This document shows, one piece after another, positions 59,194-63,439 of a stretch of DNA of 64,000 nt. The notes below the pieces were generated by a model. The model ran no database searches, was not told the origin of the DNA, and was given only the letters and a program-made list of their open reading frames with translations. The stretch is from sequence record PQ657772.1; one strand, 5' to 3'. This DNA comes from Escherichia phage EC.P1. Position 1 is the stretch's first letter; every line of letters starts with the position of its first letter. A program made the translations under genes and the position numbers.

Positions 59194-59442
59194 AGGGACT
59201 CCATTAAAAATAATATCAATCCAATAATATACGATTCATATAAAAAGTCAATAACATTTTATAAGTAATACCCCTTTATCGAAGTCGCTAAGGTTACCCG
59301 CCCTTTAGCCCCCTACGCATTTTGCCATAGTCCAATCCCTTTTTATTCATAAAAGTCAAGGGATTACCTATGCATTTTTTTAACGCTGAAGTTTAAAAAT
59401 GCCTTGACTTTTTTATGATTCAGTACTAAATCCTTTTACGCA
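59194..59442. promoter_or_regulatory. non-coding control region upstream of array B, with a 15-bp inverted repeat
   Basis: tcataaaagtcaagg (59349..59363) and its reverse complement ccttgacttttttatga (59401..59417); TTGACT-containing; GC-richer stretch 59280..59330. Confidence 0.4.
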
Positions 59443-59652
59443 TTAATCCTTCGTTACGCTTACGATTATCTGTGTATCCCCATAGTCCTGCCATACTTCC
59501 ACGCCAGCCGTCGCCCTGGTTAGTCGTGCTGTCATCTGCTTAATGGTCTTAGGCTTTAGTGGAACCTGTTGCAGTACTGTACGCATAGCACCATCGACGT
59601 TATCATGTACGCCTGCAATAGTGCCTAGAACGTTGTATACTGTATAGATCAT
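59443..59652 (-). CDS. hypothetical early protein (69 aa)
   Basis: ORF with AGGAG 7 nt upstream of ATG. Confidence 0.55.
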   Translation of the reverse strand: MIYTVYNVLGTIAGVHDNVDGAMRTVLQQVPLKPKTIKQMTARLTRATAGVEVWQDYGDTQIIVSVTKD

Positions 59653-59676
59653 GTGTATGTACTCCTGATATAGTTA

Positions 59677-59696
59677 AGGCCGCTAGAGAGCGGCCT
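59677..59696 (-). other. intergenic GC-rich stem-loop
   Basis: AGGCCGCTagagAGCGGCCT, perfect 8-bp inverted repeat between two genes; no U-tract. Confidence 0.4.
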
Positions 59697-59720
59697 ATGA
59701 TGTTTGATGATGTGTAACGC

Positions 59721-60122
59721 TTACAACCCTAAGATAGTGCGTGCTTCGTTACGTTCCGTACACAGCTGCATGATGTGAGCAAGTAAGTCCTTGCTAATGT
59801 ATCCGGTGTTCATAGCTTCACGAATAGATACATCATAAGCACCGAACCCAGTGCGAACGATACGCACATCATTCAGGTTAGTATTATAGATACCGCCGAG
59901 ATCAACGGCTTCGAATACTACATCAACAGAATATTCATTGTTGCCATCGTGGAAGTTTTCCAGTGCAATAGTATTGGAAACCGCCCAACGTTTGCAGTTT
60001 CCAATGATGCGGCACTGTTCCGGTTGGATAGTGCCATTACTTACAGCGTACTCCAGTGCATCTTTACCAAAAGTCCGAGCCAGTACTAAAACGTCAGCGA
60101 AGGAAGTGATTGAGAAGGTCAT
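59721..60122 (-). CDS. hypothetical early protein (133 aa; start revised to MTFSITSF...)
   Basis: Track ORF extends to 60185 through the promoter cassette; AGGAG RBS precedes the ATG at 60122. Confidence 0.55.
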   Translation of the reverse strand: MTFSITSFADVLVLARTFGKDALEYAVSNGTIQPEQCRIIGNCKRWAVSNTIALENFHDGNNEYSVDVVFEAVDLGGIYNTNLNDVRIVRTGFGAYDVSIREAMNTGYISKDLLAHIMQLCTERNEARTILGL

Positions 60123-60176
60123 GATAAAACTCCTTAATTTAGGAGGGAGAACCATTTCCCCCTCTCTATGTAAAAC

Positions 60177-60204
60177 ATTATACATGAATCTAAGTACTAT
60201 GCAA
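60177..60204 (-). promoter_or_regulatory. sigma70-like promoter (TTGCAT, 16 nt, TATAAT) plus downstream 5'UTR hairpin
   Basis: Minus strand TTGCATagtacttagattcatgTATAAT, then hairpin GAGAGGGGGAAATGGTTCTCCCTCC, then AGGAG. Confidence 0.6.
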
Positions 60205-60211
60205 GTACTTT

Positions 60212-60544
60212 TTACATTTTGATACCTGGATTCAGGTAGCGGTGAGATCCATATTCTGGATCGGTTTCGGTCCAGTACTGTAAATCTATAGTACCTTTAG
60301 CGTTAATCTTATCTACCAGCTTATTCATCTTAGCGTATACTACATCAGCATCGATGCGTTTAAAGCCAGTGGCTTTAGTGAAGTAGTAGTGATTTGCTTC
60401 ACTATCATTCAGGATGTACCGAGAACCGTTTGCCGTTTGTGCGATAATGATTGAGTATTCTACGTTACGGTCGAGGCCGTCGATGAATACAGAGGAAACA
60501 TTAGTACGGATGAAAGCTTTAACGATAGCGATTGAAGTAGTCAT
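60212..60544 (-). CDS. hypothetical early protein (110 aa)
   Basis: AGGAGA 6 nt upstream of ATG. Confidence 0.55.
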   Translation of the reverse strand: MTTSIAIVKAFIRTNVSSVFIDGLDRNVEYSIIIAQTANGSRYILNDSEANHYYFTKATGFKRIDADVVYAKMNKLVDKINAKGTIDLQYWTETDPEYGSHRYLNPGIKM

Positions 60545-60597
60545 TTTGAATCTCCTAACTTTGTGGGCCGTCGCACCATTGCCGCCCTACGAGATAC

Positions 60598-60626
60598 ATT
60601 ATCGCAGTACTGATATACTTTGTCAA
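60598..60626 (-). promoter_or_regulatory. sigma70-like promoter (TTGACA, 17 nt, GATAAT)
   Basis: Minus strand TTGACAaagtatatcagtactgcGATAAT. Confidence 0.55.
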
Positions 60627-60699
60627 TACTTTTTTTATTAATAGTTTTAGTTCCACCAGCAGATAGTTACTCACCGTTATTAACTATATATTTTGGATA

Positions 60700-60790
60700 C
60701 ACCTATGCACCCTGTGGGCTAGTTTTTGTCTATGCGTATATAATAGCAAAGGGACTGACCGGAGTCAATCCCTTTTTTTATTCTTTTTTG
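60700..60790. repeat. conserved intergenic element, copy 1, with terminator-like hairpin (60749..60772) and T-run
   Basis: gcaccctgtgggc ... atataatagcaaagggactgaccggagtcaatccctttttt; near-identical 3' half at 63440..63546. Confidence 0.6.
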
Positions 60791-60991
60791 TTAGATGATT
60801 CTCCAATCATCAACGATCATGGTAAGATACCGAACCAGTGATTCGAGTGATTCGTGTTCTCGATAGTCTGCCGCTCCACCAGCGGTACAAGTACAGCCGA
60901 TTAAGCCGTTTTGTAGTTCCTGGATCTTTACGTCGATCTGGTTGGCTTTAGCTTCTTTCAGTACTTCAACCAGGGCGATAGCGATAGACAT
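60791..60991 (-). CDS. hypothetical early protein (66 aa)
   Basis: ORF downstream of promoter cassette. Confidence 0.5.
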   Translation of the reverse strand: MSIAIALVEVLKEAKANQIDVKIQELQNGLIGCTCTAGGAADYREHESLESLVRYLTMIVDDWRII

Positions 60992-61046
60992 AATGTTTTA
61001 CTCCAAACTATTGGCGGGAGAACTATTCCCCCGCTCTATGTAAAAC

Positions 61047-61971: not shown

Positions 61972-62023
61972 GGTGTATCTCCTGGACTTGAGGGGAAACC
62001 ATTTCCCCCTCTCGATATAAAAC

Positions 62024-62051
62024 ATTATACGTTAATCTAACTACAATGCAA
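62024..62051 (-). promoter_or_regulatory. sigma70-like promoter (TTGCAT, 16 nt, TATAAT) plus 5'UTR hairpin
   Basis: Minus strand TTGCATtgtagttagattaacgTATAAT then GAGAGGGGGAAATGGTTTCCCCTC. Confidence 0.6.
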
Positions 62052-62058
62052 GTACTTT

Positions 62059-62250
62059 TTAAATTTTATTTCCGATATAGTCCGGCATGTTCTTTTCAGT
62101 CATACGCTTTGCTAATGTCTGCATATGGCTTATAGCGTTCAAGGTGTCTTCCTCCAGGGATGAATCAAGATAATCAGGATCATTCTTCACCTTGCAATGA
62201 TTATGATATCGTAGTACTGCCAGTACTTTTTTAACTTCTTCTACTGTCAT
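62059..62250 (-). CDS. hypothetical early protein (63 aa)
   Basis: ATGA stop/start overlap with upstream gene. Confidence 0.5.
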   Translation of the reverse strand: MTVEEVKKVLAVLRYHNHCKVKNDPDYLDSSLEEDTLNAISHMQTLAKRMTEKNMPDYIGNKI

Positions 62251-62519
62251 AATAAGTACCCCACTTCGTTAGCTTTCAGGTTAGTATCAATCATCAGTGG
62301 ATTTTTGTAGTTCACAAAACGAGTAGTTTTCTCGATAGCGAAACCCATATAATCCAGCTTACTAACAGTACATTCATTCTTAAAAACTTCTTTCGCTGCA
62401 TCGATGGCTGATTGCATGGATAACCGACCATCTAAATTAATGTTTCCAAATGATCCACCAGCAGAAGTAGGATTACCGTTCATATCTTTAATGATCATAG
62501 TAGCGGAGTAGCTGGACAT
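62247..62519 (-). CDS. hypothetical early protein (90 aa)
   Basis: ORF downstream of promoter cassette. Confidence 0.55.
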   Translation of the reverse strand: MSSYSATMIIKDMNGNPTSAGGSFGNINLDGRLSMQSAIDAAKEVFKNECTVSKLDYMGFAIEKTTRFVNYKNPLMIDTNLKANEVGYLL

Positions 62520-62574
62520 AATTTTGTTTCCTTTTATTGGTGTGGGGAGAACTATTCTCCCCTTGATGTAAACT

Positions 62575-62602
62575 ATTATACAGTACTGATATACTTTGTC
62601 AA
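62575..62602 (-). promoter_or_regulatory. sigma70-like promoter (TTGACA, 16 nt, TATAAT) plus 5'UTR hairpin
   Basis: Minus strand TTGACAaagtatatcagtactgTATAAT then GGGGAGAAtagTTCTCCCC (perfect 8-bp stem). Confidence 0.65.
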
Positions 62603-62608
62603 ATACTT

Positions 62609-63016
62609 TTATTCGCCCATATAGATTAGATTATCATCGCCTACATAGGGATCGCAAACGTTGATTTCTTCGCAGTACTTAGTGAATATATCATCATAGT
62701 GACCGATATCACGATCCCAAAAACCAGTGCCGTGACCTTCGCGAGTAAGAAAGAGATCATGACCTGCATGACTATAAGTATAATCAGGATTATGGTGTTT
62801 TTGTACTGTTTCCATATCTTCACCATGTACAGCAAGGAAACGTGAACATGCAATCACTGCCGCTTGATGGGCTTGCTCTGATAATTCATAATCTTCCAGG
62901 TAATCGCCGTTCTCATTGTGTACAGTACTGAATTGCATAGCTTCAATGTAACCAGCGACCATTGCAGCATGATTTTTATCGTTGGCGATGGACCGAGCTT
63001 GATTAGTAGTAGTCAT
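62609..63016 (-). CDS. hypothetical early protein (135 aa)
   Basis: ORF downstream of promoter cassette; nested 62641..62853 is alternative-frame. Confidence 0.55.
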   Translation of the reverse strand: MTTTNQARSIANDKNHAAMVAGYIEAMQFSTVHNENGDYLEDYELSEQAHQAAVIACSRFLAVHGEDMETVQKHHNPDYTYSHAGHDLFLTREGHGTGFWDRDIGHYDDIFTKYCEEINVCDPYVGDDNLIYMGE

Positions 63017-63068
63017 GATTTTATTCCTTTTAGTATCGGGGAGAACTATTCTCCCCTTGATGTAAACT

Positions 63069-63096
63069 ATTATACAGTACTGATATACTTTGTCAA
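63069..63096 (-). promoter_or_regulatory. sigma70-like promoter (TTGACA, 16 nt, TATAAT) plus 5'UTR hairpin
   Basis: Near-identical copy of the 62521..62608 cassette. Confidence 0.65.
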
Positions 63097-63100
63097 ATAC

Positions 63101-63322
63101 TTAATTACGGATAAAGTGATAAAGACCATTATCATCATTAACGCCCCATACTGATTTACCATTTAAACCAGTGAAGCCGGATTGCAATTCAATATGGAAA
63201 CCGTTAGCATCAACGACGAAAACTTTTTTATTTTCATCCCGATAGCATTGATATTCTTCACCTGCTTTAAATGCTGCATCATTCAGAAGATTTGAAGCGT
63301 GAACGCAGGTCATAGTAGTCAT
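63101..63322 (-). CDS. hypothetical early protein (73 aa; start revised to MTTMTCVH...)
   Basis: Track ORF 63101..63379 runs into the promoter cassette; AAAAGGAA precedes the ATG at 63322. Confidence 0.5.
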   Translation of the reverse strand: MTTMTCVHASNLLNDAAFKAGEEYQCYRDENKKVFVVDANGFHIELQSGFTGLNGKSVWGVNDDNGLYHFIRN

Positions 63323-63377
63323 CGTCTTGATTCCTTTTAGTACCAGGGAGAACCATTTCCCCCTCTCGATATAAAAC

Positions 63378-63405
63378 ATTATACGCTCATTGAGATAGTT
63401 TGCAA
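63378..63405 (-). promoter_or_regulatory. sigma70-like promoter (TTGCAA, 16 nt, TATAAT) plus 5'UTR hairpin
   Basis: Minus strand TTGCAAactatctcaatgagcgTATAAT then GAGAGGGGGAAATGGTTCTCCC. Confidence 0.6.
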
Positions 63406-63439
63406 GTACTTTTTATCAAATAGTTTTCAGTACTGAATA

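Follow-up and report, generated by a model that had tools for sequence, protein, structure and literature searches.

Promoter-early stem-loops (PeSLs) are repeated regulatory elements described in the T4-type phages RB49/phi1, T4/PST and KVP40/nt-1 (Arbiol et al. 2010, PMC2839356; Comeau et al. 2014, PMC4122927). A PeSL is a repeated intergenic motif in which an AT-rich stretch, a near-consensus sigma70 promoter and a polyG/polyC stem-loop with G-T pairs precede the Shine-Dalgarno sequence (SD) and ATG of an ORFan; the copies cluster in plastic regions, where recombination between them deletes, inserts and swaps genes (PMC2839356; PMC4122927). Five subclasses are distinguished by the position of the stem-loop, which lies upstream of the -35 box, over it, between the boxes, over the -10 box or just downstream of the latter; for all five the authors proposed that the stem-loop is a terminator or attenuator, and they also speculated on a DNA-binding recombination factor recognising GGGG...CCCC (PMC2839356). 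Here we analyse a stretch of 64,000 nucleotides from Escherichia phage EC.P1 (record PQ657772.1), referred to below as the window, in which the minus strand of 59400-63420 carries eight cassettes of ~85 bp (M1-M8), each preceding a small gene. By their sequence, these cassettes are PeSL-class elements in a new phage group, with the position of the stem-loop shifted. On balance, and with modest confidence, we favour the reading that they are PeSL-type early cassettes of an Asteriusvirus terminal repeat whose stem-loop acts as an RNA insulator, or stabiliser, of the 5' end of its own message.

Stem-loops that stabilise mRNA from its 5' end are known from the E. coli ompA 5' untranslated region and from the phage T7 gene 10 leader (GGGAGACCACAACGGUUUCCC). 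Host-takeover gene modules placed in terminal repeats are likewise known from the SPO1 terminal redundancy and the T5 pre-early region, and to our knowledge no repeated leader stem-loop has been described for either. The region studied here resembles those two and the direct terminal repeat (DTR) of phage PA5oct (PMC7318152) in holding many very small genes of unassigned function within a long terminal repeat, each gene or gene pair having its own strong host-polymerase promoter and a strong ribosome-binding site and being expressed first, a timing that for the present phage is a prediction.

The source of the window is an Asteriusvirus jumbo coliphage of the PBECO4/121Q/G17 group, and 59400-63420 is 93-97% identical to the corresponding part of the Asteriusvirus genomes WPEC3, fEgEco12, vB_Ec-M-J, G17, 121Q and PBECO4. 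By homology to vB_Ec-M-J, whose DTR is annotated as 21,525 bp at record positions 1-21525, the region is, on the minus strand, the final ~4 kb of a ~21-kb DTR; the boundary falls at ~59291, and the other side of the repeat continues past the window end at 64000. Every gene in the DTR part of the window lies on the minus strand, with products of 63-135 aa, and the genes downstream of cassettes are all annotated as hypothetical in related records. An earlier reading of the letters alone, the first-pass annotation, had placed the module in front of almost every small early gene. This holds for eight of the 11 complete genes, which have a full cassette, and fails for three, one with a promoter only, one with a stem-loop only and one that is translationally coupled.

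The at least eight minus-strand modules of ~85 bp noticed in that annotation were recovered by direct reading, seven of them canonical and M7 degenerate. A cassette consists, in order, of an A-tract, a -35 hexamer, a spacer, a -10 hexamer, a conserved initial region, a Gn-loop-Cn stem-loop, an SD and the ATG. The copies, all on the minus strand, are listed below together with matches to a covariance model (CM) of the hairpin, which was built from 13 copies.

M1, 63320..63414 (-): A-tract AAAAAGTAC; -35 TTGCAA at 63405-63400, spacer 16 nt, TATAAT at 63383-63378; stem-loop AGGGGGAA-atgg-TTCTCCCT at 63364-63345, a CM match of 40.8 bits and a hairpin predicted by folding; SD AAGGAA at 63336-63331; ATG at 63322, 74-aa gene 63322-63101.
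M2, 63014..63105 (-): -35 TTGACA at 63096-63091, spacer 16 nt, TATAAT at 63074-63069, a 12/12 promoter match; stem-loop GGGGAGAA-tag-TTCTCCCC at 63056-63038, a CM match and a hairpin predicted by folding; SD AAGGAA at 63029-63024; ATG at 63016, 135-aa gene 63016-62609.
M3, 62517..62611 (-): -35 TTGACA at 62602-62597, spacer 16 nt, TATAAT at 62580-62575, the 5' 65 nt being the same as in M2; stem-loop at 62562-62544, a CM match; SD AAGGAA at 62533-62528; 90-aa gene with ATG at 62519, then a translationally coupled 63-aa gene with ATG at 62250.
M4, 61969..62060 (-): A-tract AAAAAGTAC; -35 TTGCAT at 62051-62046, spacer 16 nt, TATAAT at 62029-62024; stem-loop GAGGGGGAA-atgg-TTTCCCCTC at 62011-61990, a CM match; SD AGGAG at 61983-61979; ATG at 61971.
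M5, 61638..61724 (-): AAAAAAGTAC; -35 TTGCAT at 61715-61710, spacer 16 nt, TATAAT at 61693-61688; stem-loop GGGGGAG-atatc-CTCCCCC at 61677-61659; SD AAGGAG at 61653-61648; ATG at 61640.
M6, 60989..61083 (-): -35 TTGACA at 61074-61069, spacer 16 nt, TATAAT at 61052-61047, a 12/12 promoter match; stem-loop GCGGGGGAA-tag-TTCTCCCGC at 61034-61014, a CM match, with a leader fold z of -2.7; SD TGGAG at 61005-61001; ATG at 60991.
M7, 60542..60635 (-): -35 TTGACA at 60626-60621, spacer 17 nt, GATAAT at 60603-60598; stem-loop GTAGGGCGGCAATGGTGCGACGGCCCAC, interrupted and weak, at 60590-60563; SD AGGAG at 60556-60552; ATG at 60544.
M8, 60120..60213 (-): A-tract AAAAAGTAC; -35 TTGCAT at 60204-60199, spacer 16 nt, TATAAT at 60182-60177; stem-loop GAGGGGGAA-atgg-TTCTCCCTC at 60164-60143, a CM match of 41.1 bits; SD AAGGAG at 60135-60130; ATG at 60122.

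The A-tract, with the consensus AAAAAGTAY, lies directly 5' of the -35 hexamer, which is TTGACA in four copies, TTGCAT in three and TTGCAA in one. The first-pass annotation had called both TTGACA and TTGCAT near-consensus, which is apt for TTGACA; TTGCAT, apparently a variant with 1 nt deleted, shares only 3 of the 6 positions with it. Its 16-17-nt spacer proved right, with exactly 16 nt in seven copies and 17 nt in M7, while its combination of a TATAAT -10 with a GC stem-loop holds for seven copies and breaks down at M7, which has GATAAT and a weak, interrupted hairpin. The initial region that follows the -10 is conserved as GTTTTACAT and variants. Stem-loops begin 10-13 nt past the -10 in seven copies (7 nt in M7), and in these seven they are clean, with 7-9 bp and -9.8 to -13.5 kcal/mol (for example, stem GGGGAGAA/TTCTCCCC); when the leaders are folded, M7 does no better than its shuffles (z = +0.76). 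The SD follows 5-10 nt past the stem and the ATG 7-9 nt past the SD in all eight copies. M2 and M3 are 100% identical over 65 nt (62544-62608 = 63038-63102), as expected from the earlier remark that the copies at 62521..62608 and 63017..63100 are almost identical. The M7 sequence is kept in five Asteriusvirus orthologues, and EJP2 has a canonical hairpin at that place. One record, CMSTMSU (MH494197.1, 'UNVERIFIED_ORG'), was excluded from the orthologue comparison because its shortened runs look like homopolymer sequencing errors: compared with every other Asteriusvirus genome, several of its hairpins have G- and C-runs shortened by 1-3 nt, and the record contains few gene calls. The same layout extends to 40 unique modules from five phage lineages, with a spacer of 16 nt in all of them, a hairpin that starts 8-14 nt (mode 12) past the -10 and an SD 4-9 nt past the hairpin in 38; the distance in the remaining two is 11 and 14 nt.

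The cassettes are real, under selection and far beyond chance. A strict search for TTGnnn-16-TATAAT on the minus strand of the whole window found 8 sites, 7 of them within 60.1-63.4 kb, where base composition predicts ~1.7 per strand per 64 kb; all 7 have a hairpin 10-13 nt downstream. Among 67 unique strong promoters from the window and five related loci, 42 have a hairpin at that position, as against 1.45% of shuffled downstream segments. Within the window the CM has just six matches, all of them minus-strand and between 60139 and 63369, the M5 hairpin being too divergent for a match at E<=1. Promoter prediction of a generic kind gave a mixed answer, with three 12/12 and one 11/12 matches inside 59400-63420 but no overall enrichment in the window (30 found vs 31.9 expected).

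The hairpin is an RNA-level structure in the 5' leader that is under selection. The 40 unique modules contain 34 distinct hairpin sequences, and a CM-based alignment of 30 distinct copies has 99.6% of its cells paired, with double-sided changes at 4 of the 8 pairs (31 cells); none of 500 shuffles reaches the observed values. This alignment was used in place of a plain MAFFT alignment of the leaders, which set the arms out of register. When internal mismatches were collected with a strand-symmetric detector that tolerates any mismatch, all ten were G·T on the sense strand and none was A·C, and in 27 of the 40 modules folding favours the sense over the antisense strand (p = 0.004). The arms are strongly polar (94% purine in the 5' arm, 6% in the 3' arm), and the SD region is mostly unpaired, with a mean pairing probability of 0.11 per nt. 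In all lineages examined the stem keeps its GGG...CCC base; loops and upper stems differ between genera (UAG, AUGG, ACAUC, GUAC, AAUACC).

These data bear directly on the view that the element works as DNA, either as a palindromic operator for an early repressor, which the first-pass annotation had raised, or as the target of a recombination protein. Its inverted repeat is placed just past the promoter, a position suited to a roadblock, the recombination junctions are internal to the cassettes, and a DNA-binding recombination factor was raised for PeSLs (PMC2839356). However, a half-site should be conserved in sequence, whereas at least 34 stems keep their pairing through compensatory, double-sided changes; the mismatches are G·T on the coding strand only, although they would be A·C on the other strand, and plain homologous recombination between identical 65-nt repeats accounts for the junctions. 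The operator is thus disfavoured, and we regard a DNA-level role in general as highly improbable.

The hairpins share with intrinsic terminators a GC-rich stem of 7-9 bp, a loop of 3-5 nt and a stability of about -10 to -14 kcal/mol; unlike terminators, they lack a U-tract and are situated between a promoter and an SD, which follows at 5-10 nt. Of the 8 nt past the stem, 24% are T and 50% A, and no U-tract follows any of the 40 unique hairpins. Their d'Aubenton-Carafa d-scores range from -42 to -83 for all eight hairpins of the window, with T-tract scores (nT) of 0.03-0.75, and exceed 0 in none of the 40 unique modules, while hairpins with T-runs elsewhere in the window are terminator-like, with d-scores of -20 to +31. 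A terminator scan of the window lists none of the leader hairpins, and in G17 the ARNold annotation, which does mark other hairpins of the repeat, skips these. On the missing U-tract, the negative d-scores and the scan, we reject a canonical intrinsic terminator. Since the helix covaries, its mismatches are only sense-strand G·U and no U-tract follows it, we take the hairpin to be a leader RNA structure rather than an operator or a canonical terminator.

The promoters in front of these leaders bear, as far as sequence can tell, all hallmarks of host sigma70 promoters with an upstream A-tract. In PA5oct, early transcription is highest in the DTR, and infection is sensitive to rifampicin (PMC7318152), and the paper on phage CBB reports that relatives encode sigma factors and not RNA polymerase, and have RpoD-like promoters with UP elements. 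From the promoter sequence, the location in the DTR and the analogy to PA5oct we infer early use by host RNA polymerase, which supports the host-polymerase type of early promoter proposed in the first-pass annotation. Each cassette would give one small gene a strong host sigma70 promoter, a stem-loop and an unpaired SD, the promoter being made up of an A-tract that resembles a UP element, the -35, a 16-nt spacer and TATAAT. Because it begins 10-13 nt past the -10, the stem-loop would be transcribed as the first structured element of its own mRNA, and there it would hinder 5'-end-dependent decay of the early message, that is, the action of RppH and then the entry and scanning of RNase E, and would hold its pyrimidine-rich arm off the SD; the same hairpin would also punctuate read-through RNA arriving from the upstream gene. 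An mRNA is protected by stem-loops at its 5' end and by obstacles in the way of RNase E scanning (review PMC7509114), and since the hairpin is a real RNA structure in the leader, a role in stabilising the 5' end of the message is plausible. The cassettes resemble the ompA and T7 stabilisers in having a short, stable, G-rich hairpin a few nucleotides from the predicted 5' end followed by an open SD, and in that the conserved feature is structure and not sequence (34 stems; unrelated stems in phages K64-1 and Yen9-03). They differ from these stabilisers in that the element also occurs at promoter-less intergenic sites and that stabilisation is here a prediction.

Several points weigh against a stabiliser of the cassette's own message. 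If transcription starts at the conserved CA 7-8 nt past the -10, the predicted single-stranded 5' tail is 3-6 nt long and most hairpins lie 4-6 nt from the 5' end. The ompA stabiliser is said, from work by Emory and colleagues in 1992, to be effective only with a stem-loop within 2-4 nt of the 5' end, and the predicted tail, at or beyond that limit, would be borderline. When a PeSL stem-loop was placed between a strong promoter and lacZ, it cut expression as much as rrnB T1 did (PMC2839356). The PeSLs of RB49, the prototype of the class, which we read directly, have their stem-loop mostly between the -35 and -10 or over the -10 and rarely in the leader; because it thus lies outside the transcript of its own promoter, protecting the 5' end of that transcript cannot be what all PeSLs do in common. 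As for the RNA helix, the covariation comes from an alignment fitted to the structure and from copies that, as paralogues, share descent, the ten G·T cases may go back to 6-7 independent events, and whole leaders reach only modest fold z-scores (-1.1 to -2.7), since shuffles rich in G and C fold too; the positional and shuffle test is more informative than these z-scores.

The borderline tail, the location of the RB49 stem-loops outside their own transcripts and the terminator-like behaviour of an RB49 stem-loop in the reporter make the original PeSL model the main rival. It holds that the stem-loop is mainly a terminator or attenuator directed against the polymerase coming from upstream, isolating each unit of cassette and gene, and that its place in its own leader is incidental or tunes down its own promoter. 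RB49 stem-loops upstream of the start site can act only on read-through RNA, as this model would have it, and mismatches that are exclusively G·U fit any RNA role of the sense strand. Against it, none of the 40 unique leader hairpins has a U-tract and all d-scores are strongly negative, while the DTR does contain related stems with T-runs where termination is evidently wanted, such as GGCGGGatcagTTCCCGCC-TTTTTT in vB_Ec-M-J and the ARNold hairpins. Moreover, an efficient terminator at ~+5 to +25 would abort the cassette's own transcripts and render a promoter 12 nt upstream pointless. We therefore consider attenuation a possible but unlikely main function.

The restriction of the hairpin to one region could instead mean that it is a class-specific RNA tag read by a factor, be it an RNA-binding protein or nuclease, of phage or host, that times the translation or decay of all DTR messages, or a nut- or put-like antitermination system. 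CM matches occur only in the DTR part, and window promoters elsewhere have no such hairpin; the strict purine/pyrimidine polarity of the arms and the GGG...CCC base conserved in every lineage examined would also suit a recognised element. Yet loops and upper stems vary between genera, no candidate protein was found, and a gene with its own promoter has no need of antitermination. The cassettes do resemble lambda nut (boxA/boxB) and HK022 put in encoding a small hairpin just past an early promoter, and differ in having neither a boxA nor a conserved loop: the boxA-like YGCTCTTWA has 0 matches in 59.4-63.4 kb, and the loops are conserved in neither length nor sequence, which together led us to reject nut-like antitermination. 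The cassette hairpin is a single stem of 7-9 bp, in contrast to the pentaloop of lambda boxB and the two-stem fold of put, and there is one copy per gene as opposed to one nut or put per operon. Re-pairing of the 3' arm with the SD amounts to 3.89 pairs vs 3.98 in composition-matched shuffles; this lack of excess leaves an anti-SD switch unsupported and speaks against a tag as well. Altogether a tag or antitermination element seems improbable. The same low standing applies to its more specific form, in which a factor would read the G-rich 5' arm or the GGG...CCC base and switch off or spare the pre-early class at the early-to-middle transition; this regulon tag is compatible with the DTR-restricted hairpin and the arm polarity, and the tests we ran gave it no direct support. 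If true, it would be a post-transcriptional timing device common to Rak2-like jumbo and rV5-like phages. Both the RNA tag and the DNA-level target are less likely than the attenuator.

RNase III needs a stem of ~20 bp, and the stems of 7-9 bp fall far below this length, so that an RNase III site was rejected. Rfam covariance models gave no match at E<=1 in 56-64 kb of the window, and in the whole vB_Ec-M-J DTR they gave only three unrelated matches below the gathering scores of their families (E 0.017-8.8).

The cassette is not limited to the window. In the complete DTR of vB_Ec-M-J it stands at ~30 of 53 genes, and the same design is found in at least three other Rak2-like genera: in Klebsiella phage fENko-Kae01, in K64-1 (Alcyoneusvirus) and in Yersinia phage fHe-Yen9-03 (Eneladusvirus), with unrelated stem sequences (GGGAAUGAA, AGAGAUUCCA, GGGUAAGC), as well as in the 142-kb phage A73, a member of the Vequintavirinae (rV5-like). 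As near-identical repeats, the cassettes serve as linkers for homologous recombination, and comparison of relatives places recombination junctions within them. Phage 121Q lacks the 135-aa gene 63016-62609 and has in its place a single hybrid cassette with the 5' flank of M2 and the 3' flank of M3. In G17 and A4, the initial transcribed region and hairpin of M4 are replaced by the M6 version, including the change of an A-U to a C-G pair, and the spacer of the M1 promoter differs between phages, having been exchanged. Between A73 and the vB_Ec-M-J DTR, five segments of cassette plus small gene are common, at 73-86% nucleotide identity and in another order, which suggests that units of promoter and ORFan have been exchanged horizontally between the 142-kb A73 and a 378-kb Asteriusvirus, phages of unrelated families. 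Judged from these comparisons, small genes are deleted, inserted and exchanged via the cassettes, within the genus and with other phage families. The first-pass annotation had missed this role of the repeats as recombination linkers that shuffle small genes, the membership in the PeSL class and the fact that the region is the end of a DTR.

Membership in the PeSL class follows from a shared AT-rich stretch, sigma70 -35 and -10 boxes, a Gn-loop-Cn stem-loop with G·T pairs, and an SD with a start codon; the cassettes precede small ORFans in a plastic early region, and indel junctions between close relatives fall within them. The subclass with the stem-loop over the -35 also occurs in the window, at 63535 and 60775, and that with the stem-loop over the -10 in fENko-Kae01, where promoters at ~6300, 8600, 11700 and 17900 have their -10 inside a perfect palindrome (for example, GGGAGTATTATATAATACTCCC). 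In addition, the leader hairpin of RB49 ORF 207 closely resembles one of the fENko-Kae01 hairpins. The cassettes differ from published PeSLs in belonging to a Rak2-like jumbo phage (Asteriusvirus) and not to the Straboviridae, a difference of scope that is taxonomic and not mechanistic. They are packed in a ~21-kb DTR with variable gene content, their stem-loop lies chiefly 10-13 nt past the -10 and within the transcript, their spacer is 16 nt and not 17 nt, and their promoters bear a clade-specific AGTACT motif. The position of the stem is nearest to the rarest published subclass, just downstream of the -10, yet it lies past the predicted start site. BLAST finds no similarity between the cassettes and RB49, and the literature on fEgEco12, Sharanji, G17, RaK2, CBB and PA5oct (GAP32 was not covered) describes no leader hairpins or PeSLs.

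With these elements the PeSL concept of a mobile regulatory cassette reaches the Rak2-like jumbo phages and, judged from a single locus, an rV5-like phage as well. The cassettes organise an entire terminal repeat of ~21 kb and ~50 orphan genes and explain why the gene content of this repeat differs between phages that are otherwise 95% identical. The strand asymmetry of the G·U mismatches is an argument for the PeSL stem-loop functioning at the RNA level, a question that the original papers had left open. The cassettes are also compact natural promoter, hairpin and ribosome-binding-site parts for E. coli. They leave the understanding of phage early expression unchanged, and the finding is sound but fairly ordinary.

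For annotation, the cassettes supply a rule for promoters, transcription units and true start codons, as several open reading frame calls begin at an ATG within the promoter. Calls at 63379, 62025 and 60185 start at an in-frame ATG within the -10/leader region (ATGTTTTA...), whereas the starts backed by an SD are at 63322, 61971 and 60122, in agreement with the annotation of vB_Ec-M-J and, for 63322, also with that of G17. In G17 and A4 the third gene (60122) is annotated from the upstream ATG as a 435-nt coding sequence. Automatic annotation may thus over-extend such genes in these phages.

The DTR part of the window contains partial or variant forms of the cassette as well:

61337..61396 (-): promoter-only unit with no leader hairpin; TTGACA, spacer 17 nt and TGTAAT at 61396-61368; ATG of the gene at 61339.
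59650..59696 (-): promoter-less stem-loop AGGCCGCT-ctct-AGCGGCCT at 59696-59677, 10 nt upstream of SD AGGAG, with ATG at 59652.
63500..63535 (-): stem-loop overlapping the -35, AAAGGGA-TTGACT-ccgGTCAGTCCCTTT, then TGCTATTAT; starts a non-coding unit.
60740..60775 (-): second stem-loop overlapping the -35, 90% identical over 60 nt to the copy at 63489-63548.

The unit with TTGACA, a 17-nt spacer and TGTAAT represents a second promoter class that recurs in the DTR, and the promoter-less stem-loop at 59696-59677 resembles the promoter-less or degraded PeSLs of T4-type phages (PMC4122927). Homologues of the hairpins that overlap the -35 are annotated as ARNold terminators in the G17 record. Just outside the DTR boundary at ~59291, a lone promoter (TTGACT, 16-nt spacer, TATTAT) at 59251-59224 (-) heads a tandem array of paralogous genes of ~65-72 aa at ~56000-59251 (-), with stop and start codons that overlap by 4 nt. 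This array has no internal promoters, no hairpins and almost no AGTACT sites, a layout in sharp contrast to the one promoter per gene of the DTR; in the vB_Ec-M-J annotation ~25 or more such genes follow one another.

Besides the cassettes, the DTR holds a multi-copy unit without an open reading frame, present on the minus strand of the window at 63535-63430 and 60775-60640. In the vB_Ec-M-J DTR it occurs on the gene strand at 3530, 10415, 12081, 14068, 17348 and 20099 and on the opposite strand at 5580, 3598, 1327 and 1111; it is also found in fENko-Kae01 and at the related loci L006, L007 and L009. A DTR has ~10 copies, so placed that almost all large intergenic gaps contain one, on either strand; at least four genera have the unit, and some copies form convergent inverted pairs. 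A unit opens with a sigma70-type promoter of its own; after it come a short hairpin, with a stem of 3-5 bp that covaries widely and a purine-rich hexaloop (missing in some copies), and a nearly invariant core, RCCC-AYA-GGGTGC-N5-6-GTATCTAT. The unit has no Rfam match, and RNAalifold predicts for its core only a 4-bp hairpin, with no covariation. In at least one copy (vB_Ec-M-J ~5650-5500, opposite strand), the promoter is ~105 nt away from a bidirectional terminator, as in a small-RNA gene, and the highly expressed non-coding RNAs of the PA5oct DTR may be an analogue.

Finally, AGTACT is the most frequent hexamer of the window, with 202 copies vs 21 expected, and CAGTACTG occurs 40 times vs 0.6 expected. 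No codon phase is free of the hexamer (73/42/64), and non-coding DNA has 5 copies per kb; the window stretches 41459-50599 and 53442-59422 lack it altogether. We found no paper on this motif. In three other Rak2-like genera it also ranks first among the hexamers of the DTR or early regions, with 18-21 times the expected number; 30 kb of RB49 contain 0 copies, and A73, the rV5-like phage, shows no enrichment. In the window, the motif lies within every cassette promoter, as AAAAGTACTTGCA or CAGTACTGTATAAT.

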